This document shows positions 6,199 through 26,059 of a DNA stretch of 32,000 nt, one piece after another. Both the position numbers and the translations under genes were made by a program. Under the pieces are notes generated by a model that searched no databases, had not been told where the DNA came from, and saw only the letters and a list, made by a program, of their open reading frames with translations. Source of the stretch: Candidatus Saccharimonadota bacterium (GTDB taxonomy: Bacteria > Patescibacteriota > Gracilibacteria > BD1-5 > UBA2023); the NCBI GenBank assembly GCA_046350815.1, contig JAXLZO010000001.1, positions 150,001-182,000 on the forward strand, read 5' to 3'. The stretch's first letter is position 1, and the number at the start of each line of letters is the position of its first letter.

Positions 6199-6351
6199 GA
6201 TTTTACTGTCCGATTTGAATCGGTCTCATCAAGAGTTGGAATCCTTGAAACAGGTGAAATCAAGAGTGTTCTTCGTACGAGAAGAAAACTTGGGTGGAAC
6301 CGTCCAGAATCGCTGGACCCCAAGACCTGATATATTGTCTGGTCTTTTTTT
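6199..6351 (+). promoter_or_regulatory. Structured 5' leader, about 150 nt, ending in an intrinsic terminator 15 nt before the MazG-like ATG. Candidate riboswitch or attenuator of unknown class.
   Basis: Helices read from the sequence: CTTGATTT/AAATCAAG, CCGAT-TTGA-ATCGG, TTCTTC-GTACGA-GAAGAA, and CTTGGG...[GTCCAG-AATCG-CTGGAC]...CCCAAG. The 3' arm CCCAAG overlaps the 5' arm of the terminator AAGACC...GGTCTT+T7 at 6323-6351. Confidence 0.35.
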
Positions 6352-6365
6352 CTGATTGAAAATAT

Positions 6366-6665: not shown

Positions 6666-6668
6666 ATT

Positions 6669-7223: not shown

Positions 7224-7251
7224 ATTATATATCGTTTACTACTACTTAACT

Positions 7252-7941
7252 ATGCAAATAAAGGAATCTACTATTCAGTACAATGGTGAATCAATAATCG
7301 CTGATATCATAGGCGATGACTCACAAATTGACATACTTATGATTCATTGATGAGGACTCGGAAGCAATCGTAAGCGGTTTCATAAGTTACGTCTTGACTT
7401 AGCAAAACATGGAATAACAAGCGTAGCATTTGATCATTTATGACACGGTGACAGCTCGTGAAATCTCTTGTGATCAACGTTAAAATCCCGGACTGAACAA
7501 GTCGAAATAATAGCTAATGAGCTCTCTCTGAATACACCTACTATGCTCTTATGAACAAGTATGGGTGCATATACCGCTATTATTGCTTGAGCAAGACTCA
7601 ATATAAAAAAGCTCTCCTTGTTTGTTCCCGGAGTGTATAATCCTAATGCGTACGAACTTCCTTTCTGACCTGAATTTAGTCAAGCTATACGACAGCATAA
7701 TAGTTGGGGGGGGAGCGATGCTTTTTCAAAAATTCAAGAACTCAAATGAAAAATTCTGATTTTTTGAGCTGAAAGAGATCAAGTCATACCAAGAGAAATA
7801 CCAGAAAGATTACACCAAGCAAGTGCTCATAGCACAATACACTGGATTGACTCAGATCACAATATCCAACAGTATATAGCAGAAAACGATACCGTAAGAA
7901 GCAAGATCGTGGCTGAGATTCAAAAGGTTATCAATATTTAA
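7252..7941 (+). CDS. Alpha/beta-fold hydrolase, 229 aa, ten in-frame TGA.
   Basis: I translated the whole frame triplet by triplet and found no TAA/TAG before 7939-7941. With TGA read as Gly, the motifs are MIHGGGLGS, LGHGDSS and the nucleophile elbow G(TGA 7552-7554)-T-S-M-G. The gene is invisible in the standard-code ORF track. Confidence 0.8.
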
Positions 7942-7963
7942 ATTAACAATAAATAAAACTCAT

Positions 7964-9124
7964 ATGGCTAATACAAAAGTGCAACACTTCAACAATAGTC
8001 TTGTAACCCCGATAAATCAATCAGCAACATACTTCTTTCGTAATACTCAAGAAGTTATTGAATATCATGAGGGTAGCAAACAATATGGAAGGTACTGAAG
8101 ATATGACAATCAAAACTGGATAGAGTGTGAAGAAAAACTTGCCCGACTTGATAACTTTTCAGATGCTTTAATTTTTCCATCTGGTATGTCAGCAATAACA
8201 ACAACCTTACTTGCACTCTTGACAAAAGGTGACCATGTTATTGTTAATGGGAAAACATACCGAAATGTTAGAAATTTTTGCACATCTTCTCTACCTAAAT
8301 ACGGTATAGAAGTGAGTACATTTGAGCTAAACGAAACTTATTTAGAAAATATTCTAGCAGTATATAATGAAAACACAAAGGTTATCTTCGTGGAGATGCC
8401 ATCAAATCCACATCTCTATGTTGCTGATATTTCTAAAATTCGAAATGCTATACGAAATGACACCATACTCATAGTTGATTCTACATTAATTACCCCGATT
8501 AATTATAAACCAAAAGATTTTTGAGCGAATCTCGTCATCCATAGTTGTTGAAAATATATTTGATGACATTCAGATATTCTTGTATGAAGTGTTTCATGAG
8601 AAGGTCCATACATAGAAATCATAAGAAATTTGCGAAATATTTTTGGATGCATAGTTGATGCGCATGCTGCTTTTTTACTAGCTCGTAGTCTTGAAACCTT
8701 AGAAATTAGGATACAACATCAGAATACCTCAGGACAAGCGCTTGCAGAATTTTTAGCAAAACATCCGAAAATTAAGACTGTATTTTATCCATGACTACCC
8801 GCTCATCCAAATTACCATCTGGCAGCATCTATATTTTCTTGATTTGGATGAGTCATGAGCTTTGAGATTGATGGAAATATGGAAGATGGGAAAAAATTTA
8901 TTGATAATCTTAAAATACCCTATATGGGAACAAATTTTGGCGGGACTATCTCGATGGTTGAGCAATGTTCAGTATTCACATATTATAAGTTAGCAAAGGA
9001 AGAACGAGACATATTGGGGATATCTGATACCTTAATACGATTTAGTGTATGAATGGAGAATATAGCAGACATTATAGCAGACATACATCAGGCACTAAAT
9101 CTTACTTTTACTAATACTAAATAA
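7964..9124 (+). CDS. Cys/Met-metabolism PLP-dependent enzyme (cystathionine gamma-synthase / beta-lyase / methionine gamma-lyase family), 386 aa.
   Basis: Track ORFs 8186-8524 and 8855-9052 are in frame with the ATG at 7964 and joined only by TGA. Motifs: PSGMSAI, the PLP-lysine region HSC-G-KYIGGHSD, YP-G(TGA)-LPAHPNYHLA, and S-G(TGA)-FG-G(TGA)-VMSFE. Confidence 0.82.
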
Positions 9125-9128
9125 ATCT

Positions 9129-10523
9129 ATGGCAACAGATATACAAACGCTCATTACTCACGCAAAGAACAAATGATTTATCTATCAGGGTTCAGAGATC
9201 TATGGTGGTCTTGCAAACTCATGGGATTATGGACCACTGGGTATTCTTCTCAAAGAACAGATCAAGACACTCTGGACTCGAGATCTCATTCAAAAACGCC
9301 GAGACATGGTTCTTCTCGATGCGGCAATCATGATGAACCCTCAAGTTTGGGTTGCCTCAGGTCATGTTGGATCATTCTCTGATCCACTTATGGAATGTCG
9401 AGAATGTCATACTCGACATCGTGCTGACAAACTCGTCGAAGAAGCTCTTGAGAAAGATGCAAACTTCCCAGTGCCTGCAAACTGGTCAGCAGATAAGACC
9501 CCCAATGAAGACTTCAATAATTATATGCAACAGGGACACATCACTTGTCCAAACTGTGGAGCAAAAAACTGGACGGATATTCAGAGATTCAATCTCATGC
9601 TCTCGACACACCAAGGTGTCACAGAGGACTCATCCTCTCTTGTCTACCTTCGTCCAGAGACAGCACAAGGTATATTTGTAAACTTTGCAAATATTGCTCG
9701 AACCACTCGTAAAAAGGTTCCGTTCGGGGTAGCACAATGTGGAAAAGCATTTCGTAATGAAATCACTCCAAAAAATGCAATATTCCGAACAAGAGAATTT
9801 GAACAAATAGAGATTGAATACTTTTGTGAGCCTGGTACTGATGGTGAGCATTTTGAAAAATGGCTCTTAGATGAAGAACAATTTTTTACGCAATCTCTTG
9901 GTCTCACAAAAGAAAAAGTAAGATTTGTGGAGATTCCAGCAGATGGACTTCCTCATTACTCCAAGAGAGCTGGTGACTTCGAATATCTCTTTCCATTTGG
10001 ATGGGGCGAGATATCCACTCTTGCAAATCGTACTGATTATGACCTCAAAGCTCATATGAATCTCTCAAAGCAAGATCTTGCCTACTTTGACCCATTCACG
10101 AATCAAAAATACATACCGTACGTGATTGAACCATCCATTGGACTCTCTCGGCTTACATTAGCACTGATGGCAGATGCCTACACGGAAGTAGAGAACGAAG
10201 AAGGAAGTCGCGTCATTATGAAATTTGCACCCCAAGTAGCACCGATCAAAGTAGCTATTCTCCCCCTCGTGAAGAAACTTTCTGAAAAAGCAATCGAGAT
10301 ATTTAACCTCCTCTCTCCTCATATGCAATGTGAGTACGATGAGACCGGTACCATCGGAAAACGATATCATCGTATGGATGAAATCGGTGTTCCATTTTCT
10401 ATCTGTGTCGACTATGATCATACCGAAGTGGGTGAAGTCACTATCCGTCATCGTGACTCAGGCGAGCAAGATACTGTGAAGATCAATGATCTCATAGAGT
10501 GGCTCAGATCACGAGGCTGTTAG
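9129..10523 (+). CDS. glyQS: Glycyl-tRNA synthetase (alpha2 dimeric type), 464 aa, one in-frame TGA.
   Basis: The ATG at 9129 is in frame with track ORF 9306-10523. The N-terminus HAKNK-G(TGA 9174-9176)-FIYQGSEIYGGLANSWDYGPLG is the canonical GlyRS start. Class II and anticodon-binding regions follow. Confidence 0.93.
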
Positions 10524-10526
10524 AGT

Positions 10527-10556
10527 AAAAAACGAGTCATACTGACTCGTTTTTTT
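10527..10556. terminator. Bidirectional intrinsic terminator between the convergent glyQS and 10564-11115 genes.
   Basis: The sequence is an A-tract, the hairpin ACGAGTCA-TACT-GACTCGT, then a T-tract. Confidence 0.7.
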
Positions 10557-10563
10557 GAAAATT

Positions 10564-11115
10564 CTAGATCTTCTCATCAACTTTCCCTTGAAGTTGCTGA
10601 ACTTGATTGGAAATATATTGACCAATCTCACGAGACATGGGTATTTTTAGTAGCAAAATACTATCTCTACCTCGAGAATATCGATATTTTTGGAACAATA
10701 TATGAATATAAAACTGTTCATAATGAATTCATGGGTAATATACATCCTCAAATGTTCTTATTTCTATGACTCAATACCTCATACAAATGATACGAGTATT
10801 TGTAATTGCATACACTGCTGGCTGAAACCATCACAATAACCTGAAAAAAAATGAGACTCAACATCATATAAAAAATGCTCATACAAATTTGAAAAATATT
10901 TCATAAAAAGAATTATATGTTAGTATTCACATAAAGAACATAACGAATACTGCTGGTGAAAAAGCACAAAAGAGGATAATATATTTCATAGTTGAGTCAT
11001 TGAAAGAAGTCACAATTTTTTCTCCATTTAAAACATCAGAAATCTGTGATGGTATTTGGGAAAGTTGCGGAAAAGATTGAAGTGAAGCTGGAAGAAGTAT
11101 ATCTTGATTATCCAT
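10564..11115 (-). CDS. Hypothetical membrane protein, 183 aa, six in-frame TGA.
   Basis: Track ORF 10927-11115 continues through TGAs to the TAG at 10564-10566 (hand translation, no TAA/TAG in between). It has two hydrophobic stretches (YIILFCAFSPAVFVMFF, FVGAFFIGCGVSFFF) followed by a soluble tail. Family not recognised. Confidence 0.5.
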
Positions 11116-11268
11116 ACATAAATTGTTAAAATCGTTTTCATCCTATCATAAAATCTCTTTTCAAGCAAAAATATCATAATACTTGTAAAAACACATTCAT
11201 CGTCTATTATGAGTACGTCAGCATTTACAAAAATATAGTTCAAAATATTTACTTTCTCTTTTTTCTTT

Positions 11269-12003
11269 ATGCGAAATATTCTCATAGCTCTCATTATTAT
11301 GAGTGGGATACTCGGCACAGGGATGATTGCTCGTGATGCATACAAAAGTCGAATTCTCGACCAAGAAACAGTTCGTGTTACGGGTGGTGCTGAAGTATCA
11401 TTCTCAAGCGATCTTGCTGTATGGCGTGGTGATTTTGAACGATCAGCTGGAGATCTCAAAACAGCCTACAATCTTATGAAAGATGATGAGAAAAAAATTC
11501 GTAGTTTTCTTGAGAAAAACGGTTTCACAGGATCAACTATCAGTATCAATCCACCAACCGTCAACAAAGAGTATAACAACGAATACGGAGCAAACGGACA
11601 AATGACATCTATTTTTGCAGGATACAGACTTTCTCAAAGCGTGAGCGTCGAATCAAATAATGTTGATCAGATTGAAAAGGTATCACGTGAAGCTTCGAGT
11701 CTCATAGAATCAGGTGTTACCCTCTCATCATATACACCATCGTACTACTATACAAAACTCTCAGATGTGAAACTCTCACTCCTCGAGAAGGCAACGGCAC
11801 AAGCAAATGAACGAGCGAAAGTGCTTGCAGAGAACTCACACACCAACCTCCTCAGACTCAAAGATGCAAATATGGGTGTCTTCCAGATTCTTGGAAAGAA
11901 TTCAAATGAGGATTACAGTGAATATGGGACATTCAATACGGATTCGCGCGAGAAGCGAGCAACTATTACCGTGAGAGCAGAATATGTTATTGGCACAAAG
12001 TAA
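11269..12003 (+). CDS. SIMPL-domain (DUF541) protein with an N-terminal membrane anchor or signal sequence.
   Basis: An intact 244-aa ORF. It has an N-terminal hydrophobic segment, and its overall pattern (VTGGAEVSF..., AQANERAKVLAENS..., ATITVRAEY) resembles the SIMPL/26-kDa periplasmic immunogenic protein family. Confidence 0.65.
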   Translation: MRNILIALIIMSGILGTGMIARDAYKSRILDQETVRVTGGAEVSFSSDLAVWRGDFERSAGDLKTAYNLMKDDEKKIRSFLEKNGFTGSTISINPPTVNKEYNNEYGANGQMTSIFAGYRLSQSVSVESNNVDQIEKVSREASSLIESGVTLSSYTPSYYYTKLSDVKLSLLEKATAQANERAKVLAENSHTNLLRLKDANMGVFQILGKNSNEDYSEYGTFNTDSREKRATITVRAEYVIGTK

Positions 12004-12011
12004 AAAATTCT

Positions 12012-12044
12012 AAAAATCCACGCCTCAAAGAGACGTGGATTTTT
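12012..12044. terminator. Bidirectional intrinsic terminator between the SIMPL gene and tilS.
   Basis: The sequence is AAAAATCCACG-CCTCAAAGAGA-CGTGGATTTTT. Confidence 0.7.
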
Positions 12045-12080
12045 AATGTTTGAAGCTATACCCTTTACTTATTTCGAAAG

Positions 12081-13043
12081 CTATCACTCAATCACAAACA
12101 CTCTTGATTGTTTTTTTGTGAGTATGAGCTTCCCTATTTGTTTCTTGGTTCCACCGTCAGCAGTCAATATATATCTCTCGATCTCTGTGATGTTTCCACG
12201 ACTCAATCATTGTCGGCTTCATTGGTGTGCCTTGGAATAGAGATAAGAAATGATGGAGTCTCTTAACGTGCTGTGTTGCTCTTGAAATCAAACCACACTG
12301 AAACCTCTATCTTCTTCAAAATGGTTCTCTTGGAGAAATTTTTCTACCTGTACTTCGATATAATTATTAATATCTTGAGCATATTCTGAGAATTCACTCA
12401 TTTTTCGATCCAATGATGGGTATTTTTCTCGAACCTGTGGAAGAATCTTATTTCGAAGCCAGTTTCTTCGATAAGAAACATCTTTATTCGTACTATCCTC
12501 TCTCCATTCAATACTATGCTCACGAATATAGATAAGGATCTCATTCTGCGAAAGAGAGAGAAATGGCCGTAGGATACCATCTGAAAAGACTTGCATTCCA
12601 ACAAGACCGACAAGAGATGAACCAGACAACCAACGCATCATGATTGTCTCTGCTTGGTCTGTCTGATGATGAGCAGTAACGATGCAAGATGCACTATGAA
12701 TTTTAGCAACTTCACGCAATGTTTGATATCTTGCTTCACGTGCACGAGATTCCAAATTATTCATATTTGAGAGATCGAGGTGAAGCAATTGTTCAAAAAA
12801 TGCAATATCCCGCCCTTCACACCATACCTTTATAAATTCACCATCGCTTGTACTTTCTGGGCGAATCCCATGATTGATATATACAACTATGTATGTGCCC
12901 CTTGGAAGAGTAAGATACGCAGCATGAAGCAAGACCATAGAATCCTTGCCTCCTGATATGGCAAGCAAAAGTGGTGATTCTGAAGACGGAATAATATTAT
13001 ATTTGCTAAGAATATCGAGAAAATATTGTTGCAACTTATGCAT
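12081..13043 (-). CDS. tilS: tRNA(Ile)-lysidine synthase, 320 aa, four in-frame TGA in the C-terminal part.
   Basis: Track ORF 12288-13043 carries the PP-loop LAISGGKDSMVLL. I extended it codon by codon through TGAs to the TAG at 12081-12083. Confidence 0.88.
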
Positions 13044-13359
13044 ATCGACTTGTATTCTGAGGAATATCCGGATTCATTTTTGAATAAAGCTTGTCTATCA
13101 TATCATCACTCGCGACAATATTTCGATTTTTTGCTCAACATTTGATGCACTCATGAATGATCATCCATCCTTTCTTTGAATGAGATTCCAGTCCGATAGC
13201 CCGCATTTCTCCAGCGCAATCACTCGCTCGATCGCCAGGGAATTCAAGATCAACATGAAGTGATGAGAGGCAGTATGGGCAATGGTTACGAGCAGATCAT
13301 TGTGGATGACGAGATACTTTTTGACCACAAAACTGGCAATCAAAAGTGTCGTTGATCAT
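13036..13359 (-). CDS. RNHCP-domain zinc-ribbon protein, 107 aa, two in-frame TGA. Its stop overlaps the tilS start.
   Basis: Hand translation gives MINDTFDCQFCGQKV...G-SARNHCPYCLSSLHVD...GDRASDCAGEM...HECIKCG. It contains the literal RNHCP motif plus CxxC pairs. I counted 108 codons. It is in a different frame from track ORF 13161-13343. Confidence 0.7.
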
Positions 13360-13404
13360 GATAAACATAGAAAATTGAAGATACATTTATGTGAAATTGT
13401 ACAC

Positions 13405-13446
13405 AAAAACAAAGAATGTGGAAAAATTTCCACATTCTTTGTTTTT
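13405..13446. terminator. Perfect 42-nt palindromic terminator downstream of the LRR gene.
   Basis: The sequence is AAAAACAAAGAATGTGGAAA/AATTTCCACATTCTTTGTTTTT. Confidence 0.7.
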
Positions 13447-13458
13447 GAGAGCATCAGT

Positions 13459-16400
13459 TTATTCTTTTGTAATTGAGAATGTTCCACCATTTGATCGGAT
13501 GGTAATTTTCTTGCTATCTGAAGTAACATTATCCTGAGAACCATTCATTCAAGCATTATCAGAATTGAAGTTTTTACTTAGTCATCCAAGTCCAGTATTT
13601 GAAAGATCAATTTGATATAATCTATTGGTCAAATCAACAAAATTGGATGGTAACTGCGTCAGATTTGGATTATTTCCAGCTTGAAGCCGAGTGAGTAATG
13701 TCATTCGTGAAATACTCTCAGGCAAAGATAGAAGATTGTTTTTTCGAACATCGACTGTCTTTATTCATGTCATATCTCCAATGCTATCAGGAAGTTGCTC
13801 CAATCAAACATGAAAGAGTTGGAGACTCTGTAACGAAGTCAGTCCACTAAATGATGCTGGCAATCTCTTTAGAGTCGTTCATTGTTCCCCGAGATCAAGA
13901 GTTTGGAGAGATCGAAGCTTTCCAAAACTCTCAGGGAGAGGATTTGGATTATCTGCTCCAGCGCCGAGACTATTATTAAAAAGGTTGAGATCAGTGAGGG
14001 ATGTAAGCTCTCCAAAAGAGGAAGGGAGTCTCGCAATAGCGTTATTAGAGAGATCAAGTGTACGGAGAGATCACAGATCACCAAAATTCGATGGAAGATC
14101 CGTAAGAGCATTATCAGAAAGATTCAGAACTTGTAGACTCGACATCTTGGAGAATGTATCAGGCAATCGTGAGAGCGTATTATTGTGGAGATCTATCGTT
14201 GTACGATTGAGTTTGTAGAACGAATCTGGGAGTGTCTTGAGATCGTTATCATAGAGCATAAACTCATTGATCTTGATGTCTCCAAAATGATCTGGCAATC
14301 GAGTGAGCTTATTATTATTAAGATAGATAGATACAGATGGCGTAGTATCGACCAAAAAACCATAAGCACAGTTTGCCCATGCCCAATATTCATCCGTTAG
14401 AACATAAGGATATGTTACCCATATTCTATCAGCTGGAGGTTGTGGCGGACAAACATTTATAGCTGTCCCCTTGCGATCGGAGAGAAATCCACTGCCGAGA
14501 TTATCAAGTTGATTGTATTGTAAATTCAGTGTTGTAAGGCTCGTAAAACCAGTAAAAGCATTTGGAAGTGTGGTAAGGTTATTACGATTAATATTAAGAG
14601 TTGTAAGCTTCTCCATGCCACCAAACGAATCTGGGAGAGAGCTTATCTGATTATTAGAAAAATTAATAACTGCGAGCTTCTTTAATCCACTCAGTGGAGC
14701 GGTGAGAGTACTCGGGAATCAGAGAAGTTTGCTGTTGGTGATCGTGAGTGTAACAAGATTGGCAAGTTTACCGAAGTCTGGTGAGAGAGTGAGAGGAACA
14801 ATGTTGTTATTGATAGTCAAAGTAGCAAGACTCTCCATTCCACCGAACGAATCAGGAAGTGAGCTGATTTGATTGCTAGAAAAATCAATCGTCGTCAGTC
14901 TCTTCAGACCACTGAGTGGAACAGTGAGAGTACTCGGGAATCAGAGAAGCTTACTATTCGTGATAATCAGAGTGGTGAGATTTGCAAGATTACCAAAATC
15001 AGGTGAGAGAGTGAGAGGAGCACGATTATCAACAATAGTAAGAGTAGTGAGACTAATATTATCCCCAAAACCAAGTGGTAAGGATTCAAGATCATTGTAT
15101 GAGAGAATCATTGAGGATACATTCAATAAACCAATAGACGATGGAAGATTCGTGAGCTTATTGATACTCAGATCCAAATAGCCAGTGAGATGAAGATTCC
15201 CAAAATCTGGCGATAATGACACAAGTTGATTATTTGTAAGGTTGAGTGATATTAATTGAGAAAGTTGTCCAAAGCGTTCTGGAAGTCTCGTGAGTTGATT
15301 ATTATTGAGAGAAAGAGTATTGAGATTCACAAGTTTTTCAAAATCACTCGGAAGCTCTCGTAATGATCCGTAAGAAAGATCAAGGTAGATGAGGCTGGTA
15401 AGTTGACTAAACGATGTCGGCAGCGAAGTGAAAGCAGATCTAGATAAGCCGTCGCCTCACATTTGTAGATTATTAAGTTTCGGAAGGCTGGTTATAACCT
15501 CAGGAAAAGTAGTAATTCTATTATTTCTATAACTGAGAGTAACGAGCTCGGTAAGACCAGAAAATGATGCTGGCAAATTGCCAATAGAATTATTATCAAG
15601 ATTCAACGTTTGAAGTTTCTTGAGATTCCCTATTCCTTCAGGAAGGGCTGTCAAACCAGCATCAGCAAAACTTAAACTCATTAAATTTTTAAGCTTCCAA
15701 AAAGCATCAGGTATTGCCTTGTTATGACGAATAGTGACGGAAGTAAGTGCACAGAGTTCTCGTGGTCAGTATGCATCATCATTTCCATAATAACCATAGG
15801 CATTGCTCGTCAAGAATGTATTTACGGTTTTTATCTCAGATTCTGTTAATCCACATTCATTATCCGATGTCTTTCCAAACCCAATTTGTAGTGGAGTGCC
15901 ATCTCAAGCACTCCTGATACTCATAAGCTCATTTGGACGACCAATCGTTGGATAAGGACTATTATTGCGCCATACCGATCCTGTTTGCTCAGCATACAGA
16001 CTACCAGAGCTTTCAAAAAGACGAGAGAGATTTTTGAGGCCAGTATTCGAAGAGAGATCAAAATAGTATAGATTTGTATACTTAGTCAACTGATCTGGGA
16101 TATGGCTGATATTATTAAAAGAATAATCAATCGAATGAATTCGAGGGTTCAATCTATCATAAGTATCGTAGTAGTGTCAGTAGTAACCTCAATAGTTAGT
16201 ATTGGTTAGTGATTGACTGATTCGAGTGATGTTATTATGTGCTAAGTTTAGCTTCTTGAGAGATGGAAATGAACACGCTTGCCAGCCACCAAGACCATTA
16301 AGAGCCCAAAATCCACCAGCTATAGTTGTGATCCGATTGTAAGAAAGATCAATTTCGGTCATTCATGAATTCCAGCATCAGACTGCTTGGATGCCCATAA

Positions 16401-19230
16401 AATAAGAATCGTAATAAGAATTTCTGACTTCAAGGAAGTTATGTGAGAGATTGATCTTGGTTACGGATCGTGGAAGTTCCGGCAAATGAGTGAACTGATT
16501 GTATGAGAGATTGAGATCGGTTACTCCTCGGAGTTTTTGTATTCCCGTCGTACTAATATTCGCATTAGTGAGTGATCCACTTGAGAGATTGATAGCACCT
16601 GTGCCAGTACACCATCCATCAGCCGTCCTTGTTTCTCATGTCAGCTCGTTCAGTTTTCGTACTTCAGATCGTTTGAGCTCACAAGCAAGAAGTCATACCT
16701 CAATAGTAATAGCATTAGGACTATGTGTTATCTTTACAGGCGATCCATCTGGAGTCATATCTGACTCATTCGAAGAACTACTCGCATAGTATACTCACTT
16801 TTGCCAGTTACTCGCGAGACTTTTCAGCTGGTTATTTCATGAGAGATTCAAATTCGATAACTTATTTGAAAGTGTAACAATCGAGTCTGGGAGAGTCTTG
16901 AGTTTATTGTTCGCAAGATTCACCGTAAAAGACTGAAGAGTAGAGTATGAGTAGCATCAATAATAAAAATCACAGTAAGAATTATTAACATATATTGGCG
17001 CAGCAAAAAGTGTCGTGAATGTCTCAGGAAAAGATGTAAGTTTGTTGTTAGAGAGATTAAGTGTTGTGAGGCTTTTCAATCCTCAAGTACTACTCGCTCC
17101 AAATGTGTCCGGCAGAGTCGAAAGATTGTTGTTAGAGAGATTAAGTGTTGTGAGTTTCATTAGTCATCCGCCAGCACTCAGACCAAATGCATCTGGAAGT
17201 TGAGTGAGACCACGTCATGATCAGAGCGATGAAGCGTTGAACACACTCAAATTCTTGAGTGATCCAAATGAATCTGGAAGAGCATGAATATCATGCCCTG
17301 ATATATCGAGATAATAGAGACTTTGTAAATCACCAAATGCGCCTGGTAGACTCGTAAGAGTACCAGTATTAGAGGCGTAGAGATATGATAATTTGGATAA
17401 TTTTGTGAAAGAATCTGGGAATTTCTGAAGACGATTATTACTTATATCAAGTATCGTTAATGAATTTTTGATACTGCTATCAAAAATATCTGGAAGCGAT
17501 TCAAGAGGATTATTCGTGAGATAAATAGTTGAAAATCAACGTATGGATCCAAAAGAATCCGGCAAACTCTTCAGATTATTTTGTGAAAGATTTATAGTGC
17601 TAAGTTCATAGGAACTCATTTCACCAAGATGATCACCAAAATGTTCACCGAGTTGGGTAAGTTTTCCATTTTGATTTGTAGCATTGAGATTTCTAAGTTT
17701 TTTGAGATTACCGAATGTATTGGGAAAAGTGCGGAGATAGTTGTTAGCTAAATCAATGTATGCAAGATTTGGAAGATTACCAAGACTCTCTGGAAGTGCT
17801 TCAAGATTGTTATTCTGAAGGGTAAGCGTTGAGAGGCTCGGAAGTCAAGAGAATGATGCCTCATTGATACGTGAGAGTTGTCCATTTTGGGATGGTGCGA
17901 TGAGCGTATAAAGCTTTGGGAGTTTGCCAAAATCATCTGGAAAACCCGTAAGACGATTATTAGTAAGATCAAGAATGAGAAGATTCGACATATCTCCTAT
18001 ACCTGAAGGCAGAGAACTGAGTTTATTATTCTGGAGATATAATATCTGAATATTCGTCAACTTACCAATCGATCCGGACATCGAAGCAATACGATTAGAG
18101 GAAAAATCTAGTGTTCATGAGAGATTGAGATTTCCAAAGGAATCTGGGATAGAATCAATATAGTTATATGAAGCATTGAATGATCCTGAGAGGAGCGAGA
18201 GATTGCCTATATTTTGAGGAAGCTTTGCAAGTCGATTGTAGGTGAGCTGAAGATTCGAGATTTTTGTGAGTTCACCAAATCACTCAGTGAGATCCTGTAT
18301 ACCACTACAACGTGCATCAAAAGATTCAAGATTTTTGAGATTCTTGATCGAATCAGGAAGCTTTGTAAAGGTGCCATATGGCTGACAGTAAGTCGGAATA
18401 GCACTAAGCCAGTCAGCACTACCACCTGTGTAAGAGTAATACCAGTAACCAGTGTTATTAGTATTATTATTTTTCAAATCAATGCTCGTAATTTGAGTGA
18501 GTTCACCAATGCTTTCTGGAAGAGTACTAAATCGGTTGTAGCTTAGATCGAGTTGTGGTTTTAACTTCTTCAACGCTCAAAAATCATCTGGAAGTGTTGT
18601 TAGAAGATTATGATGCAAAGTGAGTGTTTCAAGATTGATCAGTCGACCAATACTCTGTCGTGTTGTACCAGAGAGACTCAATAGACTATTTCTCGATACA
18701 TTCAGTGTGACAAGATTTTTGAGTCGATATACTCCTGTTGGGAGAGAAGAAATACCACGATCTGATATATCCAAAGTAGTTGCGTTACACCACTTGAATT
18801 TATCCCAGTTTCTCACTTCTCGCGAGAGACGATTGAGCTCGGATGCCTGAGCATCATTGAGTCCACAGTCGCCAGGATTACGAGGAGCCTTACAGAGGAG
18901 AACATTATTCTCACCCGTGATTCCGTATGCTACCTTATCTGGAGCACATCAGAGTGGATAAGTAGTCATATTGAGCTTTGTCCTGATCTCATCGATAGTA
19001 ATACACTTAAGTTTGTATACACCGCCAGTCAGAGTGTATCCCATAGATACAGAATCACTCGGACACACATTGATAGCTCAACTGAATAATCAAGCGATCG
19101 GAGCGTTAATCTGAGAATTTATTGGTTGTGCTACACTTGGAGTATCAAGAGCAAATACAGATGTGTTGATAAACACACTTGCAAGGAATCAAGCAAGCAA
19201 ACAAAGAGAACGAGAAAGAGATTTTATCAT
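13459..19230 (-). CDS. Giant secreted multi-module leucine-rich-repeat protein, 1923 aa, 33 in-frame TGA.
   Basis: All LRR-bearing track fragments (14071-14616, 14941-15330, 15457-15681, 15904-16152, 17845-18081, 18280-18573, 18577-18816) share one frame. I scanned every triplet in all gaps between these fragments from 13459 to 19230 and found 33 TCA (TGA) and no TTA or CTA. The start ATG at 19228-19230 is preceded by an in-frame TAA. The N-terminus is signal-like (MIKSLSRSLCLLAGFLASVFINTSVFA). Dozens of LxxLxLxxNxLxxLP repeats follow, broken by Cys-capped linkers. Confidence 0.85.
14608..15052 (-). repeat. Tandem 222-bp (74-aa, three-LRR) duplication inside the LRR gene.
   Basis: The 26-nt core GTGAGAGTACTCGGGAATCAGAGAAG occurs at 14702 and at 14924, exactly 222 bp apart, with clearly similar flanks. 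The conserved core includes an in-frame TGA. Confidence 0.8.
17042..17154 (-). repeat. 84-bp (28-aa) tandem LRR unit with an identical 29-nt core.
   Basis: TTGTTGTTAGAGAGATTAAGTGTTGTGAG occurs at 17042-17070 and at 17126-17154. Confidence 0.8.
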
Positions 19231-19238
19231 ACAAAAAA

Positions 19239-19622
19239 TTAATCAACTTCATTACAAATCACTGCACCAGTAGAACTAAATCCAACCAGAAAATTATTTA
19301 TCTTGCTCGGATCACATTCTTTGTTTTTGATATTATCACGCGTAGTTCCACTCAGAACCTTATCTTTAAACTCAATAATTCACATACAGTTTTGTGTAAT
19401 GCCAGAGCTCATACTACCAGTATATCCAAGAGCTACTCCTGTAGAATTACAGTTTTGAAAGAGCGAAGTAAAATGTGTACTGAGTGTACCACCAGTTGAT
19501 TCACCGGTTGGAGTCTCTGGCCAGAGACTCGCAATATCATCAGCAAATATCCATGTACCTGATACTCAGATGAATAGAGTCACAGCACTCAAGAGAGTAG
19601 TGGAATTGAAATATTGTTTCAT
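19239..19622 (-). CDS. Small secreted four-cysteine protein, 127 aa, two in-frame TGA. Paralog of 19631-20011 and of the LRR protein N-terminus.
   Basis: The ATG at 19620-19622 is followed by a signal-like MKQYFNSTTLLSAVTLFIGVSGTWIFA. The mature part is ...FQNC-NSTGVALGY-...QNC-...KEC-...LVGFSSTGAVIC. The stop is the TAA at 19239-19241, 8 nt upstream of the LRR gene ATG. Confidence 0.65.
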
Positions 19623-19630
19623 ATAATTTT

Positions 19631-20011
19631 TTATTGAAGTTTCTGGCATTTTTTCCCTCCAGTCGAGGTAAATCACACTAACAACGATCCCTCATCACAT
19701 TTTTGTGCATTCGTCTGAGATTGTGCCTGAAGCGCAAAGAGATCACGAAGCTCATCCATTGTTATGCAGTTCTGTGATTTAGTATTTGGGTCATAACCGA
19801 GTGAGATACTACCAGATCCACACTCTCGGAAAAAACGATCAAAATTATCACGAAATACTCCTCCGCTCTTCTCACCAGATGGTTGAACGGTCGGGAAATC
19901 TCAAGGTGTCAGCAGATAATCATTCGAGAAAGATGCAAAAGCAAGCGCTCATCCGCCGATAGAGAGAGTCATTATGAGCGGAAAAATATACTTTCGAAGG
20001 TTTTGTTTCAT
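19631..20011 (-). CDS. Small secreted four-cysteine protein, 126 aa, three in-frame TGA.
   Basis: The ATG at 20009-20011 is followed by a signal-like MKQNLRKYIFPLIMTLSIGGGALAFA. The mature part is ...FRECGSGSISLGY...QNCITMDELRDLF...QKC...LLVGFTSTGGKKC. I verified this by reverse-complementing every line. The stop is the TAA at 19631-19633, 8 nt upstream of the next ATG. Confidence 0.65.
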
Positions 20012-20128
20012 ATACAGAATTTACTTTTTTCTATTACATCACATATTGTGTAAAAACACGAGAAAATTATATAGACAACTAATGGTTATAATTTTTTATA
20101 CATTAATCTAAATTCTATGGGATAAAAA

Positions 20129-20156
20129 TTGACAGAACAAAAGCAAAAAGTATAGC
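20129..20156 (+). promoter_or_regulatory. Sigma-70-like promoter: TTGACA, 16-nt spacer, TATAGC.
   Basis: An exact -35 hexamer at 20129-20134, a 16-nt spacer, and a -10-like hexamer at 20151-20156. No protein gene lies downstream on this strand. Confidence 0.4.
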
Positions 20157-20159
20157 TTC

Positions 20160-20273
20160 ACAGTTCATCGTGTCTATGTGCTACGGTCAAGCTAGCAACC
20201 GTCCAACGAAGTGCATTGGTCACACTGAGTTGAATACCAATTTTCAACAAAAAACTAGCAATTTGCTAGTTTT
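20160..20273 (+). ncRNA. Candidate small RNA, about 110 nt, unknown family, bounded by a promoter and a terminator.
   Basis: It lies between the promoter at 20129-20156 and the hairpin AACTAGCA-ATT-TGCTAGTT+TTT at 20249-20273. Internal hairpins are ACGG-TCAAGCTAGCAA-CCGT and ATTGGT...ACCAAT. There is no convincing ORF. Confidence 0.3.
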
Positions 20274-20329
20274 AAGCTCTCAACACTCCAGAAAAAATAC
20301 TATCCTTTAAACACTCATATTTAATATAT

Positions 20330-20358
20330 TTGACAAATAAATTATTATATGCAATAAT
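20330..20358 (+). promoter_or_regulatory. Sigma-70-like promoter: TTGACA, 17-nt spacer, AATAAT.
   Basis: An exact -35 hexamer at 20330-20335 and an AT-rich -10-like hexamer at 20353-20358. Confidence 0.4.
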
Positions 20359-20364
20359 ACTCTT

Positions 20365-20467
20365 GTTCTTGCCAAAATGAGGTAAGGATCCAGGTCAGGA
20401 TTGGATTATTCTGCCCTGCACCGCAAGGTGTTTACAACCCCGTCGATTTCATACGATGGGGTTTTTT
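20365..20467 (+). ncRNA. Candidate small RNA, about 100 nt, unknown family, ending in a strong intrinsic terminator.
   Basis: It has a GNRA-capped hairpin CACC-GCAA-GGTG, a hairpin CAGGTCAG...CTGCCCTG, and the terminator CCCCGTCG-ATTTCATA-CGATGGGG+T6 at 20438-20467. It converges on the rnc stop codon. Confidence 0.3.
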
Positions 20468-21199
20468 CTATATTTTCTCTTTCATCCATTCATTCTTTTT
20501 TGAGAGAGCATCTTTTGCAGCCTCTTGCTGAGCCTTTCTCTTGGATGAAGATGAACCCTGTCCAATCACCTTTCCTATTAATACAATATTCATCTCATAA
20601 ATGTGATCATGATCTGGACCAGATTCTGCCGTGAGGACATATTCTGGCAAACAATTGAAATATTGTTGTGTAAGTTCCTGCAAATATGATTTTGGATCAA
20701 TATGACGAGATTCTTCGAGAATCTGAGGAAGTGTTGAGAAAATATGTTTTGATATAAACTCTCTTGTCACATCGATACCTCAAGCAAGATAGAGGCTTGC
20801 TATAAATGCTTCAAGTACATTCGCAAGAATATAGGGATTTTCCCGTCCTTTATTTTTTTCTTCTCAGACTGATACAACAATAGCACTTCCCAGGCCGATA
20901 TTTGCAGCTACGAGAGCAAGATTATTTCCACGCACCAGAGCAGAGCGAAGATCCGTAAGATCTCCTTCATTCTTTTCTGGATAGAGACTGTAGAGATATT
21001 CTGTTGTAATGAGCTCAAGTACCGCATCTCAGAGAAATTCCAACCGTTCATTGGAAGAAGTGAGAAATTCATATTCATTGAGTGCTGAGCGATGAAAAAA
21101 AGCCTGTACGAAGCGTTCACTAGGATAATGAGCAAGTTGCAGTCGAGAGAGAACGTCAGATACTTGGACAAGATGATCAGAAGATGTAAATCGAGACAT
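20468..21199 (-). CDS. rnc: Ribonuclease III, 243 aa, three in-frame TGA.
   Basis: The ATG at 21197-21199 is in frame with track ORF 20468-20770 (dsRBD, ...KRKAQQEAAKDAL). The catalytic signature is NERLEFL-G(TGA 21029-21031)-DAVLEL. Confidence 0.9.
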
Positions 21200-21223
21200 A
21201 AAAAAGAACCAAATTTTGGTTCA
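21200..21223 (-). terminator. Hairpin plus T-tract between nusB and rnc. Possible terminator or attenuator.
   Basis: On the minus strand the sequence reads GAACCAAA-ATTTGGTTC followed by TTTTTT, ending just before the rnc ATG. Confidence 0.4.
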
Positions 21224-21225
21224 TA

Positions 21226-21864
21226 TTAAACATTTTTTTGTGATTGGCGAATGTTTTGTGTGACACTCAGAGAATCAATATCAAATGCTCGTCTCGAAGC
21301 ACGATCAAGCTGTTTTTGTGTTGGTGCTAGAAACGCATCCTCGAGGCGGACGGAAGCAGTCTGTGAAGCATCAGCTTCCAAATTTTCACTATAAATATCA
21401 CGAGATGCTATTTCACCATTGATTGTAATAGCTCTTGATACATCAAGATCAGCACTGATCGAATGAAGCACACCATTTGTAAGACGCTTGTTACTCTCAT
21501 CACAGAAAATCTTCGATAGACCAATACCCTCATTGATACTGATGCGAGTATCTGGACGAAGTTCTGGGGAAAGATAGAGCATCTCATAAGATGCGATATA
21601 TACCGAAAGAAGATTTGCTATGGATAGAAGGGACAAATCAAATTTTGGAGCAAAGTGTGTGATAAGTCGTGAGAGTTCATTGCTCTTCGCACGTATCCCA
21701 TTATACATTTCCAGGAAATAAGCATCCGAGAGAAGAGTAACAAATCGTGGACTATGAAAAAAAGTATGCAAAAAAGTATCGAGAGATGCATCACGATTAA
21801 AAGCGGCGCTGTATAAACATTGAAAGAGTACCTCTCGGCACTCTCGACGAGTAACTTTTGACAT
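21226..21864 (-). CDS. nusB: Transcription antitermination factor NusB with a C-terminal extension of roughly 70 aa.
   Basis: An intact 212-aa ORF. Motifs: RRECREVLFQCLYS at the N-terminus, ...YEMLY..., ISINEGIGLSKIF and FxNGVLH, matching the NusB motif order. Confidence 0.75.
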   Translation of the reverse strand: MSKVTRRECREVLFQCLYSAAFNRDASLDTFLHTFFHSPRFVTLLSDAYFLEMYNGIRAKSNELSRLITHFAPKFDLSLLSIANLLSVYIASYEMLYLSPELRPDTRISINEGIGLSKIFCDESNKRLTNGVLHSISADLDVSRAITINGEIASRDIYSENLEADASQTASVRLEDAFLAPTQKQLDRASRRAFDIDSLSVTQNIRQSQKNV

Positions 21865-21905
21865 ACGGATGGAGAAGGCTATCGTGCCAAAAGGGAATAC
21901 AGAGA

Positions 21906-21932
21906 GAAAAAAAGGGCAAAAGCCCCTTTTGC
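21906..21932 (-). terminator. Intrinsic terminator downstream of rpmF.
   Basis: On the minus strand the sequence reads AAGGGGC-TTTT-GCCCTT followed by a T-run. Confidence 0.55.
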
Positions 21933-21942
21933 AAAAAACAAA

Positions 21943-22176
21943 TTACGCCCGAACGGTACGGATTTTACTTGCTTCAGTCTTTACAGAGATTACATCGCGA
22001 CCTTTGTATTGACCAGTGAGAGGAGATGCAAAATGTGCAAGTCCTGTTGCATTACCATCAGCATCGTATTGGAGAACAATACCATTTGCGATCTTGCGAG
22101 ACTTCTCAAAAAGCCACTTTCCATGACGTTTGCGAGTCTGAACTTTCGATGCTTTTTTCTTTGGTGCGAATGACAT
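21943..22176 (-). CDS. rpmF: 50S ribosomal protein L32 (long form, 77 aa).
   Basis: The internal ATG at 22174-22176 of track ORF 21943-22230 gives MSFAPKKKASKVQTRKRHGKW...GQYKGRDVI, which matches the L32 N-terminal basic motif and the C-terminal GxYxGRxVI. Confidence 0.75.
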   Translation of the reverse strand: MSFAPKKKASKVQTRKRHGKWLFEKSRKIANGIVLQYDADGNATGLAHFASPLTGQYKGRDVISVKTEASKIRTVRA

Positions 22177-22311
22177 ATCGATTTTTTTGAAAACAATGGA
22201 CAGATTATATTGAAAAACCACAAAATGCAAGTATCGAAGAGATTTTTATTCCAAGAGAGAAAATACTGGAAAAAAAAGAAATATGGGTAGTATGGGAGAA
22301 ATATTTGAAGT

Positions 22312-23289
22312 ATGAAAAAAATTATTACCGGTGTGAAGCCAACGGGTGAATCCATGCACCTTGGGAATTTTATGTGAGCCGTTTTTCCGGCCTATCAAGC
22401 ATCAAAATGAACTGACTCAGCAATATTTATCGCTAATCTCCATGCGCTCACCAGTGTTACCAATGGTGATATATTGAGAGAGCAGTCATTTGAACTCGCT
22501 GTTGAGTACTTTGCTATCTATGGACTCGATACGGAGACGAAGATATTCAGACAATCAGATATTCACAACATCACCAAACTCATGTGGATACTCACAAATG
22601 TGACTCCTTATTCTCTCATGCTCCGTGCTCATAGTTTTAAGGACAGCGAAGCAAAGAATGTAGATTTGAACATGGGAGTCTTCAACTACCCTATTCTCAT
22701 GGCAGCTGATATTCTCGGATATGGGATTGAGGCTGTACCTGTAGGTAAAGATCAAGTACAACACCTTGAGATGACTCGCGATATTGCGCGCAATTTCAAT
22801 AAGACTTACAATTGTAACCTTTTTATCGAACCGAAAGCAATCGTGACCGAGTGACTTGCAACACTCCCTGGAATTGATGGAAGAAAGATGAGTAAAAGCT
22901 ATGGTAACTTCATAGGGTTATTTGACGATGAAAAGACGCTCAAAAAGCGAGTTATGTCGATAGTTACAGATTCACTCGGTGTGGATGATATTAAAAATCC
23001 CGATACCTGTAATGTATTTGCACTTATCAATGTATTCGCTACTCCAGAACGACGAGAGGCTATCCGAGCGAAATACCTCACACCGAATGCAGGATACGGA
23101 TATGGTCATGCAAAACTCGAGCTTCTCGAGATCCTCACAGAATATTTGCGACCATACCGTGAAAATCGAGAACAAATCCTCAAAAATCCAGAACTTGTCG
23201 AACAAAAACTCCAACAAGGAGCAAAGATCATGAATGAACGACTCGATGAAATTATGAAGGAAGTGGTGAAATTGACGGGAGTAAAATAA
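22312..23289 (+). CDS. trpS: Tryptophanyl-tRNA synthetase, 325 aa, three in-frame TGA.
   Basis: The ATG at 22312 is in frame with track ORFs 22474-22854 and 22888-23289. Motifs: the HIGH-like KPTGESMHLGNFM-G(TGA 22375-22377)-A, then GKDQVQHLEMTRDIA, then KMSKS. Confidence 0.92.
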
Positions 23290-23291
23290 AT

Positions 23292-23789
23292 ATGAATCAA
23301 TGAATATTTATTTTCGTAATATGTATAGTTCTATTTATTAGTCTGTACCTGTATTTTCGATTTGCAAAAACCTGAAAAAAACAAAAGTATGAACTACGTG
23401 CTGACTTTTTTAACCGATCAGAATTTATATTCTATCAAATAATCAAATCAAAACTACCAAATAATTTCATGATTTTTTCAAAAACACGAATCGAGGATTT
23501 CATCAGAGTAAAAGAAGGATTCTGAGCCAAAGAAACATACGGTCTTCGCTCAAGAATCAAATCAAGACATGTTGATTTTCTTATATGCAATGAAAATGGA
23601 AAGCCTTTAGTTGCTATAGAGATAGACTGACTGTCTCACATGAATCTTGAGCGTCAAAAAAGAGATAGTTTTGTTGATAATCTCTACAATGAAGTCTGAC
23701 TCCCAATACATCATATTCGAGTAGGGGAAAACTTTGAGGAAAGAATTTCTAAAATTATAGAACAGATTGGAACGCAAACACAGAAATAA
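23292..23789 (+). CDS. DUF2726-like (restriction-endonuclease-fold) membrane-anchored protein, 165 aa, five in-frame TGA.
   Basis: Hand translation shows an N-terminal TM segment (IFIFVICIVLFISLYLYF), then ...SEFIFYQ...RHVDFLICNENGKPLVAIEIDG(TGA)LSH...RDSFVDNL, the core pattern of DUF2726. Confidence 0.55.
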
Positions 23790-23813
23790 TCCTCGCAATT
23801 GCGAGGATTATTT
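23784..23813. terminator. Bidirectional terminator between the DUF2726 gene and the last pilus gene.
   Basis: The hairpin is ATAATCCTCGC-AATT-GCGAGGATTAT. It overlaps both stop codons. Confidence 0.65.
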
Positions 23814-24776
23814 ACTGAATACACTGTATTTGAGTCCATCGAGAAGATCCGAGTTATTCTGACAGAATTTATAGAACTGACCTCGTGCATTGTTGCCTCT
23901 TCCCACCTCCGCTGTTGCGTAAATACAAGGTTTTGGTGAAGAAAAAGGAATAGCAGAAGCTGATCCAACGGACGTGGAAGTGAGATTATATTCTATGCTA
24001 TCTGATTGATTATTGAACAGAACAAGAAAAGGCTTTGTATATGTGAATGTCCCACCTGAAAGAAAGTTTGATATGGTATCAGGGCTATCCTTTACATATT
24101 GTTCTCAGATCGTTCCATTGAGGATACGAAGAGCACCTGAAGAAGATGGACCAGCTATCTCTCCCGTACCAGCAAGACCAATAGTTTCAGATCCACTACT
24201 TACAAGAATATTCCATGATAATGCTCATGTGGATGCAGTTGATGCAGATGGAACTGTAAGATTAAGTTTGAAATTCTTTGTAAATGTTGCTGTATCACTT
24301 CAAGACCATGTTTTTAATCAAGAACAAGTAAGCAAAGACGAAGCGCTACCGGTGTCAGTATACAACGGGATAATTTCATATCCACCCCCTGCAATTGTGC
24401 CAGTGTAACTCGTCTCTTGTGATTTCATTTCATATCCTATTTTGAGCGAATGACTCATAATATCAATACTTCCAGAATCACTCCGTAATACCTTGGAAAT
24501 ATCACACGCATCATCTCGTTTAAGAGTGTCTTCAAAACCATGGTCATGATGCTTTTTCTTGAGGAGAGCATACTCGAGAGCTCATTCTGAGCCATATTGG
24601 GTTGCAATACCTGATGAAAGCGTGCGAGTGATTTTGTTTTCCTCGACAAAGAGCCAGAGGAGACTTGCTGTAACCACCGTCAAAAAACCAATGAGAAGCA
24701 CGACAATAATAGCAACAAATCATTGCTTGTCTTCTTGAAGAGAACGCGATCGCGATGAAAAAAAAGATGATGTCAT
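23808..24776 (-). CDS. PilX/GspK-like pseudopilin (no Glu5), 322 aa, six in-frame TGA.
   Basis: I verified the full hand translation line by line and found no TAA/TAG. The N-terminus is ...QEDKQ-G(TGA 24720-24722)-FVAIIVVLLIGFLTVV. It is in a different frame from track ORF 24455-24649. Confidence 0.65.
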
Positions 24777-24777
24777 A

Positions 24778-25458: not shown

Positions 25459-25460
25459 AA

Positions 25461-26057: not shown

Positions 26058-26059
26058 AA

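Follow-up and report, generated by a model that had tools for sequence, protein, structure and literature searches.

The closest described counterparts of the protein studied here are LIC10831, LIC11098 and LIC12759 of Leptospira interrogans (PDB 4u06, 4u08 and 4u09), which are likewise bacterial and exported and are built almost wholly of 23-residue leucine-rich repeats (LRRs) of the form LxxLxLxxNxLxxLPxxIGxL. LIC10831 has been reported to bind cadherins and, as extracellular LRR binders of the surface proteins of another cell, these proteins offer the best functional analogy. The Listeria internalins InlA and InlB, which attach the bacterium to another cell and so follow the logic of the function proposed here, combine a signal peptide, a helical N-cap and an LRR solenoid. 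LrrA of Treponema denticola and BspA of Tannerella forsythia, both oral bacteria, are surface LRR proteins of the TpLRR/BspA repeat type (Pfam LRR_5), set in another domain context. Both have been reported to mediate the co-aggregation of bacteria with one another, an interaction of the kind that would be expected of an episymbiotic bacterium in the candidate phyla radiation (CPR). To our knowledge, no representative of the Gracilibacteria has been cultured, and neither the hosts nor the attachment machinery of this group are known. Here we analyse a giant LRR protein gene in a stretch of 32,000 nucleotides of a Gracilibacteria genome (hereafter the window). Together with two small genes directly upstream, it looks like a single transcription unit that is replaced as a cassette between close relatives. 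We suggest, as the most likely reading and with moderate confidence, that the giant protein is an extracellular multi-solenoid LRR binder for the recognition of, or attachment to, a host or prey cell.

Giant surface proteins have been proposed as host-attachment factors in a sister lineage. Vampirococcus lugosii (Absconditabacteria), whose ~1.3-Mb genome likewise reads TGA as glycine, encodes proteins of 1392-4163 aa that are proposed to form its fibrous surface and to serve in recognising the host and attaching to it (PMC8080830). Unlike the protein described here, they have domains of the WD40, PKD, integrin, fibronectin and DUF11 types, with no mention of LRRs (PMC8080830). We liken the two by description and claim no sequence relationship. 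An adhesion-dependent lifestyle, involving pili and adhesion, has been proposed for groundwater Gracilibacteria (PMC11452946), and our literature search found no paper on LRR proteins of this group.

The giant gene is intact when read with translation table 25:

13459-19230, minus strand: giant LRR protein gene, 1923 aa, code 25, 33 TGA read as Gly, identical to MFO0763399.1

An earlier note on this DNA had described one frame of 5772 nt with TGA as glycine, 33 TGA codons and no internal TAA or TAG, filling about 18 percent of the window, and every part of this description holds. The gene starts with ATG, contains no TAG, and its sole TAA is the terminal stop; it takes up 18.0% of the window and 0.45% of the 1.28-Mb genome. 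Upstream, the stop-to-stop frame ends at 19251, 7 codons beyond the ATG. From composition, ~83 TAA or TAG would be expected over the 1924 codons, and none occurs internally (P ~1.6e-37). The other five frames of the same DNA contain 40-120, and 50 shuffles of the window produced no TAA/TAG-free run longer than 249 codons, versus 1930 observed. A chance origin of the frame is excluded by these counts and shuffles. Collapse of the repeats during assembly, which the earlier note had named as a possible refutation, is unlikely, because the only tandem duplication at the DNA level (14610-15019, period 222) is 78% identical, an independent Logan assembly matches at 100% identity across window positions 7200-14019, and an ortholog with 78-86% identity, assembled from other samples, is collinear save for whole-repeat insertions and deletions.

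The gene had also been called hidden, which is not borne out. A word-indexed search of 5.8 billion proteins found an identical 1923-aa protein in GenBank (MFO0763399.1, 'MAG: leucine-rich repeat domain-containing protein [Candidatus Gracilibacteria bacterium]'), encoded on a contig of 1,283,673 bp, and the gene is therefore not hidden in the primary database. Code 11 splits the frame into 34 pieces; the region is chopped only in resources with code-11 calls, as in Logan/ENA contigs of the same organism, and relatives in ENA and JGI are mistranslated with TGA as tryptophan (code 4). Calls of these two kinds in public metagenome resources break up or mistranslate genes like this one.

TGA is decoded as glycine, not tryptophan. 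The window has a GC content of 38.8% and, with TGA as a sense codon, resolves into ordinary genes, which encode ArgRS, an S1 protein, a Cys/Met pyridoxal phosphate (PLP) enzyme, GlyRS, a SIMPL protein, TilS, RNase III, NusB, TrpRS, pilins, PilC and ThyA. The assignment follows from four lines of evidence. In thymidylate synthase (ThyA), compared with solved structures, TGA falls on the invariant glycines of K[G]FPLLTTK and LEV[G]EFVH. In two pilin genes the obligatory -1 glycine of the prepilin motif G/FTLIEL (the slash marks the cleavage site) is TGA, and read in this way the products match Pfam N_methyl. Within the giant gene, TGA positions are mostly glycine in relatives at 40% identity, the TGA codons of relatives (called W by code-4 pipelines) sit on its GGN-encoded glycines 8-11 times, and the true TGG-tryptophan columns of the alignment remain W. 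Finally, the NCBI source name of the identical protein is Candidatus Gracilibacteria bacterium, which also agrees with the origin given in the earlier note. No tRNA-Gly(UCA) is found within the window.

The altered code also affects other genes and searches. The gene for the Cys/Met-metabolism PLP enzyme (7898-9124, plus strand) has 11 in-frame TGA among 409 codons, several of which surround the PLP-lysine motif (HSCgKYIggHSD), and under code-11 pipelines it appears as pieces of 112 and 65 aa (L001). Peptide patterns that contain glycine, once back-translated, overlook TGA-encoded glycines in code-25 genomes; in VGLLAC, the most conserved motif of the LRR family, the glycine is TGA in the giant gene. 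The practical warning is that glycine-containing search patterns silently skip such positions.

The giant protein matches only LRR families in Pfam (LRR_8, 376 bits, E=4e-115, 19 stretches; LRR_14, E=1e-105; LRR_4, E=6e-81). Strict LRR motifs occur 38-43 times, most frequently at a spacing of 23 residues and with the consensus LxTLxLSNNxLxxLPxSFGxLxx. Two AlphaFold2 (AF2) models, computed from an input alignment of four sequences, place ~60 repeat strands in four solenoid segments. The LRR arrays described in the earlier note are thus recovered by Pfam and in the models alike. Judged by its motifs, the protein can be assigned to the Leucine-rich repeat superfamily (Pfam LRR clan) and to the 23-residue SHOC2/Leptospira-LIC repeat class, and the models predict curved solenoids with a parallel beta-sheet on the concave face. 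Solenoids are confidently modelled (predicted local distance difference test (pLDDT) 85-95) at residues ~150-806, ~1160-1585 and ~1630-1890; that at residues ~880-1070 is less regular and of lower confidence. From N- to C-terminus, the protein comprises:

19150-19230, minus strand: signal-peptide-like N-terminus, residues 1-27 (K3/R7, ~19-residue hydrophobic core, VFA/LD)
18880-19098, minus strand: N-terminal 4-Cys domain, residues ~45-117, with C56, C76, C95 and C113 invariant (no Pfam match, low AF2 confidence)
18781-18867, minus strand: cap 1, a two-helix LRR N-cap, C122...C148 (AF2 helices 126-135 and 144-148, pLDDT 79-88)
16813-18780, minus strand: LRR solenoid 1, residues ~151-806, ~25 repeats (Pfam; AF2 pLDDT mostly 85-94)
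16603-16758, minus strand: junction 1, a beta-hairpin C-cap (MTPDGSPVKIT...IEVG) then cap 2 (C850...C874)
16021-16602, minus strand: LRR module 2, residues ~877-1070, ~8 irregular repeats
15745-15933, minus strand: junction 2, a C-cap hairpin (LMSIRSAGDGTPLQIG) then cap 3 (C1126...C1160; AF2 helices 1130-1141 and 1156-1160)
14476-15744, minus strand: LRR solenoid 3, residues ~1163-1585, ~18 repeats (AF2 pLDDT 85-92)
14341-14475, minus strand: aromatic/Cys insert, residues ~1586-1630, with C1594 and C1621 conserved (AF2 pLDDT below 50)
13561-14340, minus strand: LRR solenoid 4, residues ~1631-1890, ~11 repeats (AF2 pLDDT 84-95)
13462-13533, minus strand: conserved C-terminal beta-hairpin cap, ending KKITI.S....ITKE (alignment, AF2, motif scan)

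The three super-modules with Cys-bracketed linkers proposed in the earlier note are conserved down to ~40% identity, and the peptides that it quoted, from caps 1-3 and the aromatic inserts, are all present where it placed them. The linkers start at residues 122, 850 and 1126 (nucleotides 18867, 16683 and 15855) and are kept in all relatives. In the AF2 models each linker forms two short helices followed by the first strand of the next solenoid, which is why we interpret them as LRR N-caps. Caps 1-3 are mutually homologous (hhalign 91-97%, E 1e-6 to 6e-10). The N-terminus with cap 1 and the junction segments give no match to Pfam LRRNT or LRRNT_2 at E<=1; on the models, the caps would be analogous to these families in having a Cys pair around helices, without being members. 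The super-modules end in small beta-hairpins (...SPVKIT...IEVG, ...GTPLQIG and ...KKITIRSNGGTFSITKE). The boundary of solenoids 3 and 4 is formed by a Cys-containing aromatic insert and has no cap, and there are therefore three capped super-modules but four solenoid segments, the fourth being an addition to the earlier note.

Junction 1 is the best-conserved stretch of the LRR family, and module 2, with its Tyr/Gly-rich loops and conserved C952/C986, is the most diverged part among orthologs. Solenoid 1 has a low-confidence aromatic insert at residues 260-280, flanked by C282/C308, and a hairpin insert at 747-765; solenoid 3 includes an internal duplication of 74 aa (222 nt) that the relative P0002 lacks. 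The aromatic inserts GYWYYSYTGGSADW (residues 261-274) and YPYVLTDEYWAWANCAYG (residues 1607-1624) are modelled as low-confidence loops. The mature protein has 18 cysteines, arranged as nine sequence-adjacent pairs, and 16 of the 18 are invariant at 40% identity; this pairing fits a disulfide-bonded extracytoplasmic protein.

Fold and sequence comparisons agree on the nearest matches. Foldseek with the AF2 models gives a probability of 1.00 to SHOC2, LIC11098 and plant LRR ectodomains; the top matches by Foldseek and phmmer are SHOC2 and Leptospira LIC10831/11098/12759, and the best PDB sequence matches are LRRD1, SHOC2 and LIC10831. SHOC2 and LRRD1 (sequence E 1e-48 to 1e-56, Foldseek E 1e-24) have the same repeat class and curvature, but unlike the giant protein they are cytosolic eukaryotic scaffolds of one solenoid, with no signal peptide or disulfide caps, and the likeness reflects repeat class, not orthology or function. 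The Leptospira proteins, which are among the best matches in both sequence and fold, differ in having 340-400 aa, one solenoid, the standard genetic code and an animal-host target, and they lack the 4-Cys N-terminal domain, the internal Cys-bracketed caps and the small partner genes. Internalins are defined by repeats of 22 residues, an Internalin_N cap, an Ig-like inter-repeat (LRR_adjacent) domain and LPXTG or GW anchors, none of which was detected in the giant protein (only generic LRR families in Pfam, period 23, no LPXTG). Membership in the BspA/TpLRR type is not indicated, as LRR_5 scores 47 bits in one stretch (451-520) versus 376 bits for LRR_8. The effectors YopM, IpaH and SspH of type III secretion systems (T3SS) have 20-residue LRRs, an N-terminal T3SS signal in place of a Sec signal and often a C-terminal NEL domain; the giant protein, with 23-residue repeats, a Sec-like N-terminus and no non-LRR Pfam domain, does not belong to this group.

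The signal-like N-terminus noted earlier is kept in orthologs, which have the same pattern of VFA followed by L or N. Residues 8-29 form the only hydrophobic segment of the giant protein and its sole Kyte-Doolittle window above 1.6, and we infer from this that the protein is exported. The C-terminal cap region contains no transmembrane segment, LPXTG or toxin domain by motif scan and Pfam.

We identified two partner genes, absent from the earlier note, directly upstream of the giant gene and on the same strand, in the order smallA, smallB, giant gene:

19631-20011, minus strand: smallA, 126-aa paralog of smallB, 3 TGA, GenBank 'hypothetical protein U0518_00825'; stop 8 nt before the smallB ATG
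19239-19622, minus strand: smallB, 127-aa secreted 4-Cys protein, 2 TGA; stop 8 nt before the ATG of the giant gene
13402-13447, minus strand: hairpin and U-tract directly after the stop of the giant gene, likely the intrinsic terminator of the three-gene unit (-27.5 kcal/mol)
20149-20176, minus strand: candidate sigma-70-like promoter TAGACA-16-TATACT, ~140 nt upstream of smallA (weak, 10/12 match)

Because of the 8-nt spacers and the terminal hairpin (z = -8.7, 0/200 shuffles as good), the three genes look like one transcription unit; in the promoter scan, the total of sites was no higher than in shuffles. Both small proteins have Sec-like N-termini and the common pattern PxGExxGG...C...GY...C...C...FLVGF...C. 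The profile of the small proteins matches that of the N-terminal domain of the giant protein (hhalign 94.6%, E=7e-8), and the small proteins are therefore free-standing copies of this domain. The homology is visible in the profile-profile comparison only, BLASTP of smallB against the N-terminal domain being not significant. Neither the small proteins nor the N-terminal domain nor the caps match any Pfam family. A further G+C-rich hairpin, with a 10-bp stem and a T-run, lies at 20436-20463, between the RNase III stop and the region upstream of the cassette; it may act as terminator or insulator at the margin of the variable interval, for which the boundary of similarity is 20249.

Every related locus that is readable (twice in L007, and in L008, L009, L011, L016 and L017) has the same order, in which a giant LRR gene comes after one small gene or two. 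Full-length relatives of the giant protein are P0002 (~82% aligned identity) and P0003 and P0004 (~40%); beyond these, matches are generic LRR proteins. A TGA-aware DNA signature of junction 1, validated on four known copies, had no match in 185,579 GTDB species representatives and seven in metagenome contigs of JGI/ENA, which all belong to a single assembly series. An exhaustive search of 1.84 billion cluster representatives with a hidden Markov model of the N-terminal domain, for which exact substrings taken from database proteins served as queries, yielded 10 hits. Of these, about seven are genuine, each being an N-terminal fragment with the same layout of domain, cap and LRRs; P0133, P0136 and P0139 were judged on inspection to be spurious, repetitive proteins. 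The small-protein profile retrieved 16 clusters in 5.8 billion proteins. As far as sequence searches can tell, the LRR family is extremely narrow.

In more distant relatives the cassette lies at another locus, adjoining ABC-transporter and CYTH genes (L007 4385-9406 and 10001-14980; L008 4927-9509 and 10001-14806; L016 11021-15769). L007 and L008 have two tandem giant LRR paralogs, each with its own small gene, and the upstream giant copy in L008 is split into several calls. A 66-aa small-protein fragment in NCBI (P0155) is filed under 'Candidatus Peregrinibacteria bacterium' and is near-identical to the small protein of L011; the label may have arisen from an error of binning or taxonomy, or may point to a wider distribution.

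Comparison with two close relatives reveals the replacement of whole cassettes. L009, at ~80-86% DNA identity, runs collinear with the window between positions 12862 and 26019. In L011 (from the same sample series), flanks of 85-90% identity (window 13160-13443 and 20249-24917) enclose an interval that is dissimilar:

13444-20248, strand not applicable: replaceable cassette, no DNA similarity in L011 across the interval

The L011 interval holds its own small gene and a divergent member of the LRR family, nearer to P0003 and P0004. Conserved housekeeping flanks around a dissimilar interior indicate that cassettes are replaced whole.

Substitution within the cassette is faster than in its neighbours. 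The ratio of nonsynonymous to synonymous substitution rates (dN/dS), calculated against L009 by the Nei-Gojobori method with code 25, is 0.19 for the giant gene and 0.20-0.21 for the small genes, 2-4 times that of TrpRS, RNase III and NusB (0.047-0.096). Relative to L009 the giant gene is a mosaic, with dS ranging from 0.04 to 1.4 along its length. Residues ~300-600 (window ~17430-18330) have 97-99% protein identity and a dS of 0.04-0.15, against a local background of about 0.65-0.85 and values of 0.4-0.9 in the flanking parts and neighbouring genes, which suggests that lineages have recently recombined here. In module 2 and at residues ~1430-1740, identity is 57-72% and dS reaches up to 1.4. 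Length variation, which the earlier note had proposed looking for among orthologs, is also present: besides the 74-aa duplication, a 28-aa repeat (LPDAFGLSAGGWLMNLTTLDLSNNNLAT) occurs in P0002 but neither in P0122 (ENA, same 90% cluster) nor in the giant gene, which is the shorter form at this place (residues ~676-720). Cassette conservation and this pattern of change are plain from the loci compared.

Based on these features, we propose how the giant protein may work. It would leave the cell through the Sec pathway, with cleavage of the signal peptide, and, once beyond the cytoplasm, would fold up as four LRR solenoids in a chain, arranged in three capped super-modules, made of 23-residue LxxLxLxxNxLxxLPxxFGxL repeats and stabilised by the nine conserved cysteine pairs. 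The long concave beta-sheet faces could serve as protein- or glycan-binding sites that recognise and hold surface molecules of a bacterial host or prey, beside the type IV pili of the nearby genes. Tethering or presentation of the giant protein at the cell envelope would probably fall to the 4-Cys domain and the two small, co-transcribed secreted proteins, and anchoring through the 4-Cys domain is hypothetical. The cassette would change by point substitution, gain or loss of whole repeats, patchy recombination and outright allele replacement, and it may evolve fast because the partner of the giant protein itself changes. For the protein we infer surface retention, ligand binding and a role in host attachment, and a host-recognition role is consistent with the accelerated, mosaic and cassette-like evolution seen in sequence comparison. 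It also agrees with the part proposed for the giant surface proteins of Vampirococcus (PMC8080830) and with the dependence on adhesion proposed for groundwater Gracilibacteria (PMC11452946).

Several observations weigh against this proposal. The signal peptide was judged by simple rules. The sortase, S-layer and lipobox signals for which the earlier note had suggested a check were not found, and a motif scan and Pfam detected no LPXTG, lipobox, C-terminal transmembrane segment, SLH, LysM, GW or choline-binding anchor; with no recognised anchoring signal, surface retention is conjectural and release is possible. No fold is assigned to the N-terminal 4-Cys domain, module 2 and the inserts, which lack a confident AF2 structure. 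In L011 (cassette at 5464-10965) the LRR gene has an in-frame TAG that divides it into 971 aa and 734 aa, also present in the independent assembly L014; the allele may be truncated, may be a pseudogene or may be read through, and it implies that the LRR gene can be dispensable or truncated. Variable positions on the concave face do not change significantly more often than those on the convex side (substitutions 0.24 vs 0.18, p=0.15, with saturation in distant pairs), and the overall dN/dS of the giant gene is below 1, so there is no direct signature of diversifying selection on a binding face. An apparent excess of concave-face substitutions was rejected, its control class having included semi-conserved scaffold residues.

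A more specific version of the proposal, that smallA, smallB and the giant gene together form a lineage-specific, exchangeable host-range cassette with an envelope docking complex and with the solenoids as specificity determinant, is doubtful as a whole. It would require jointly that the 4-Cys domain, both free and at the N-terminus of the giant protein, builds a complex on the envelope that is dedicated to docking or presentation, and that the solenoids are swapped between strains by recombination, as phages swap receptor-binding proteins. If true, the allele of a strain would predict the host to which that strain can attach.

Other explanations also place the protein at the surface or beyond it. 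Giant LRR chains and small Cys-rich proteins could form a fibrous or protective coat without specific host recognition, for which the size, the export signal, the disulfide-rich caps and the small co-encoded homologs, as possible assembly partners, would be suitable. Such a coat would also accord with the overall purifying selection, the lack of concave-face enrichment and the fibrous surface of giant proteins described in Vampirococcus (PMC8080830). However, LRR solenoids typically serve for binding and not for building lattices, and a very narrow clade in which whole alleles are swapped or truncated between close relatives is a poor fit to an essential envelope scaffold; we regard a coat as improbable. 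The Sec-type signal, the small conserved C-terminal cap without a membrane segment and the want of an anchoring motif of known kind could point to a soluble factor that is released to act in the medium or on the host, for instance to mask or cross-link host surface molecules or to serve as a decoy for phages or host defences. We consider this rather improbable too: the conserved 4-Cys domain, which the giant protein has in common with the co-transcribed small proteins, suggests an assembly or tethering interaction, free release of multi-solenoid proteins of 1900 aa would be costly for a 1.28-Mb genome, and no enzymatic or toxin domain was found by Pfam.

The proximity of pilus genes raises the idea that the LRR protein is displayed on the type IV pili encoded 4.5 kb away, or is a tip or accessory factor of them. 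N_methyl pilin genes and PilC lie at 23808-27767, in an arrangement kept in L009, and in Saccharibacteria adhesion to the host requires type IV pili (as cited in PMC11452946). Yet the giant and small proteins have ordinary Sec-like signals and no class III prepilin motif (G/FTLIE), RNase III, NusB and TrpRS separate the two clusters in the window, and the cassettes of L007, L008 and L016 adjoin ABC-transporter and CYTH genes instead of pilus genes, all of which makes a pilus adhesin very unlikely. That the locus is non-functional, whether as a pseudogene in decay, as a repeat array wrongly assembled or as a frame in which TGA should be read as stop or tryptophan, is hardly credible. The 34 code-11 pieces, the fragmentation by code-11 pipelines, the TAG in the related allele and the TGA=Trp calls of ENA/JGI relatives might seem to favour it. 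They are countered by the improbability of a frame without TAA or TAG (~1e-37), the dN/dS of 0.19, collinear orthologs in independent assemblies, repeats that are at most 78% identical at the DNA level, TGA on invariant glycines of ThyA and the prepilins and in exchange with GGN, not TGG, and the full 1923-aa product annotated by NCBI. The pseudogene, assembly-artefact and TGA=Trp readings were rejected, as they are effectively refuted by the stop statistics, dN/dS, orthologs and glycine alignments.

The giant protein itself is already annotated and is ordinary as a large bacterial LRR protein. The tandem capped super-modules, the 4-Cys domain that the giant protein shares with the two co-transcribed small proteins, the narrowness of the family and the replacement of alleles appear undescribed in the literature searched. 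A cassette with two partners, restriction to a small clade and wholesale replacement between close relatives are traits expected of a host-interaction determinant, and the cassette therefore provides a testable handle on hosts, and on host-range change, in episymbionts.

Elsewhere in the window, the region at ~6100-7900, which adjoins tRNA-His (6011-6087), has overlapping TGA-rich open reading frames (ORFs) on both strands and no confident gene or Rfam family. The type IV pilus cluster (23808-28364, minus strand), 4.5 kb from the LRR unit and syntenic in L009, comprises a pilin-like ORF, two N_methyl pilins in which the cleavage-site glycine is TGA, PilC/T2SSF and a small downstream ORF. The first pilin-like gene of this cluster has a dN/dS of 0.15.

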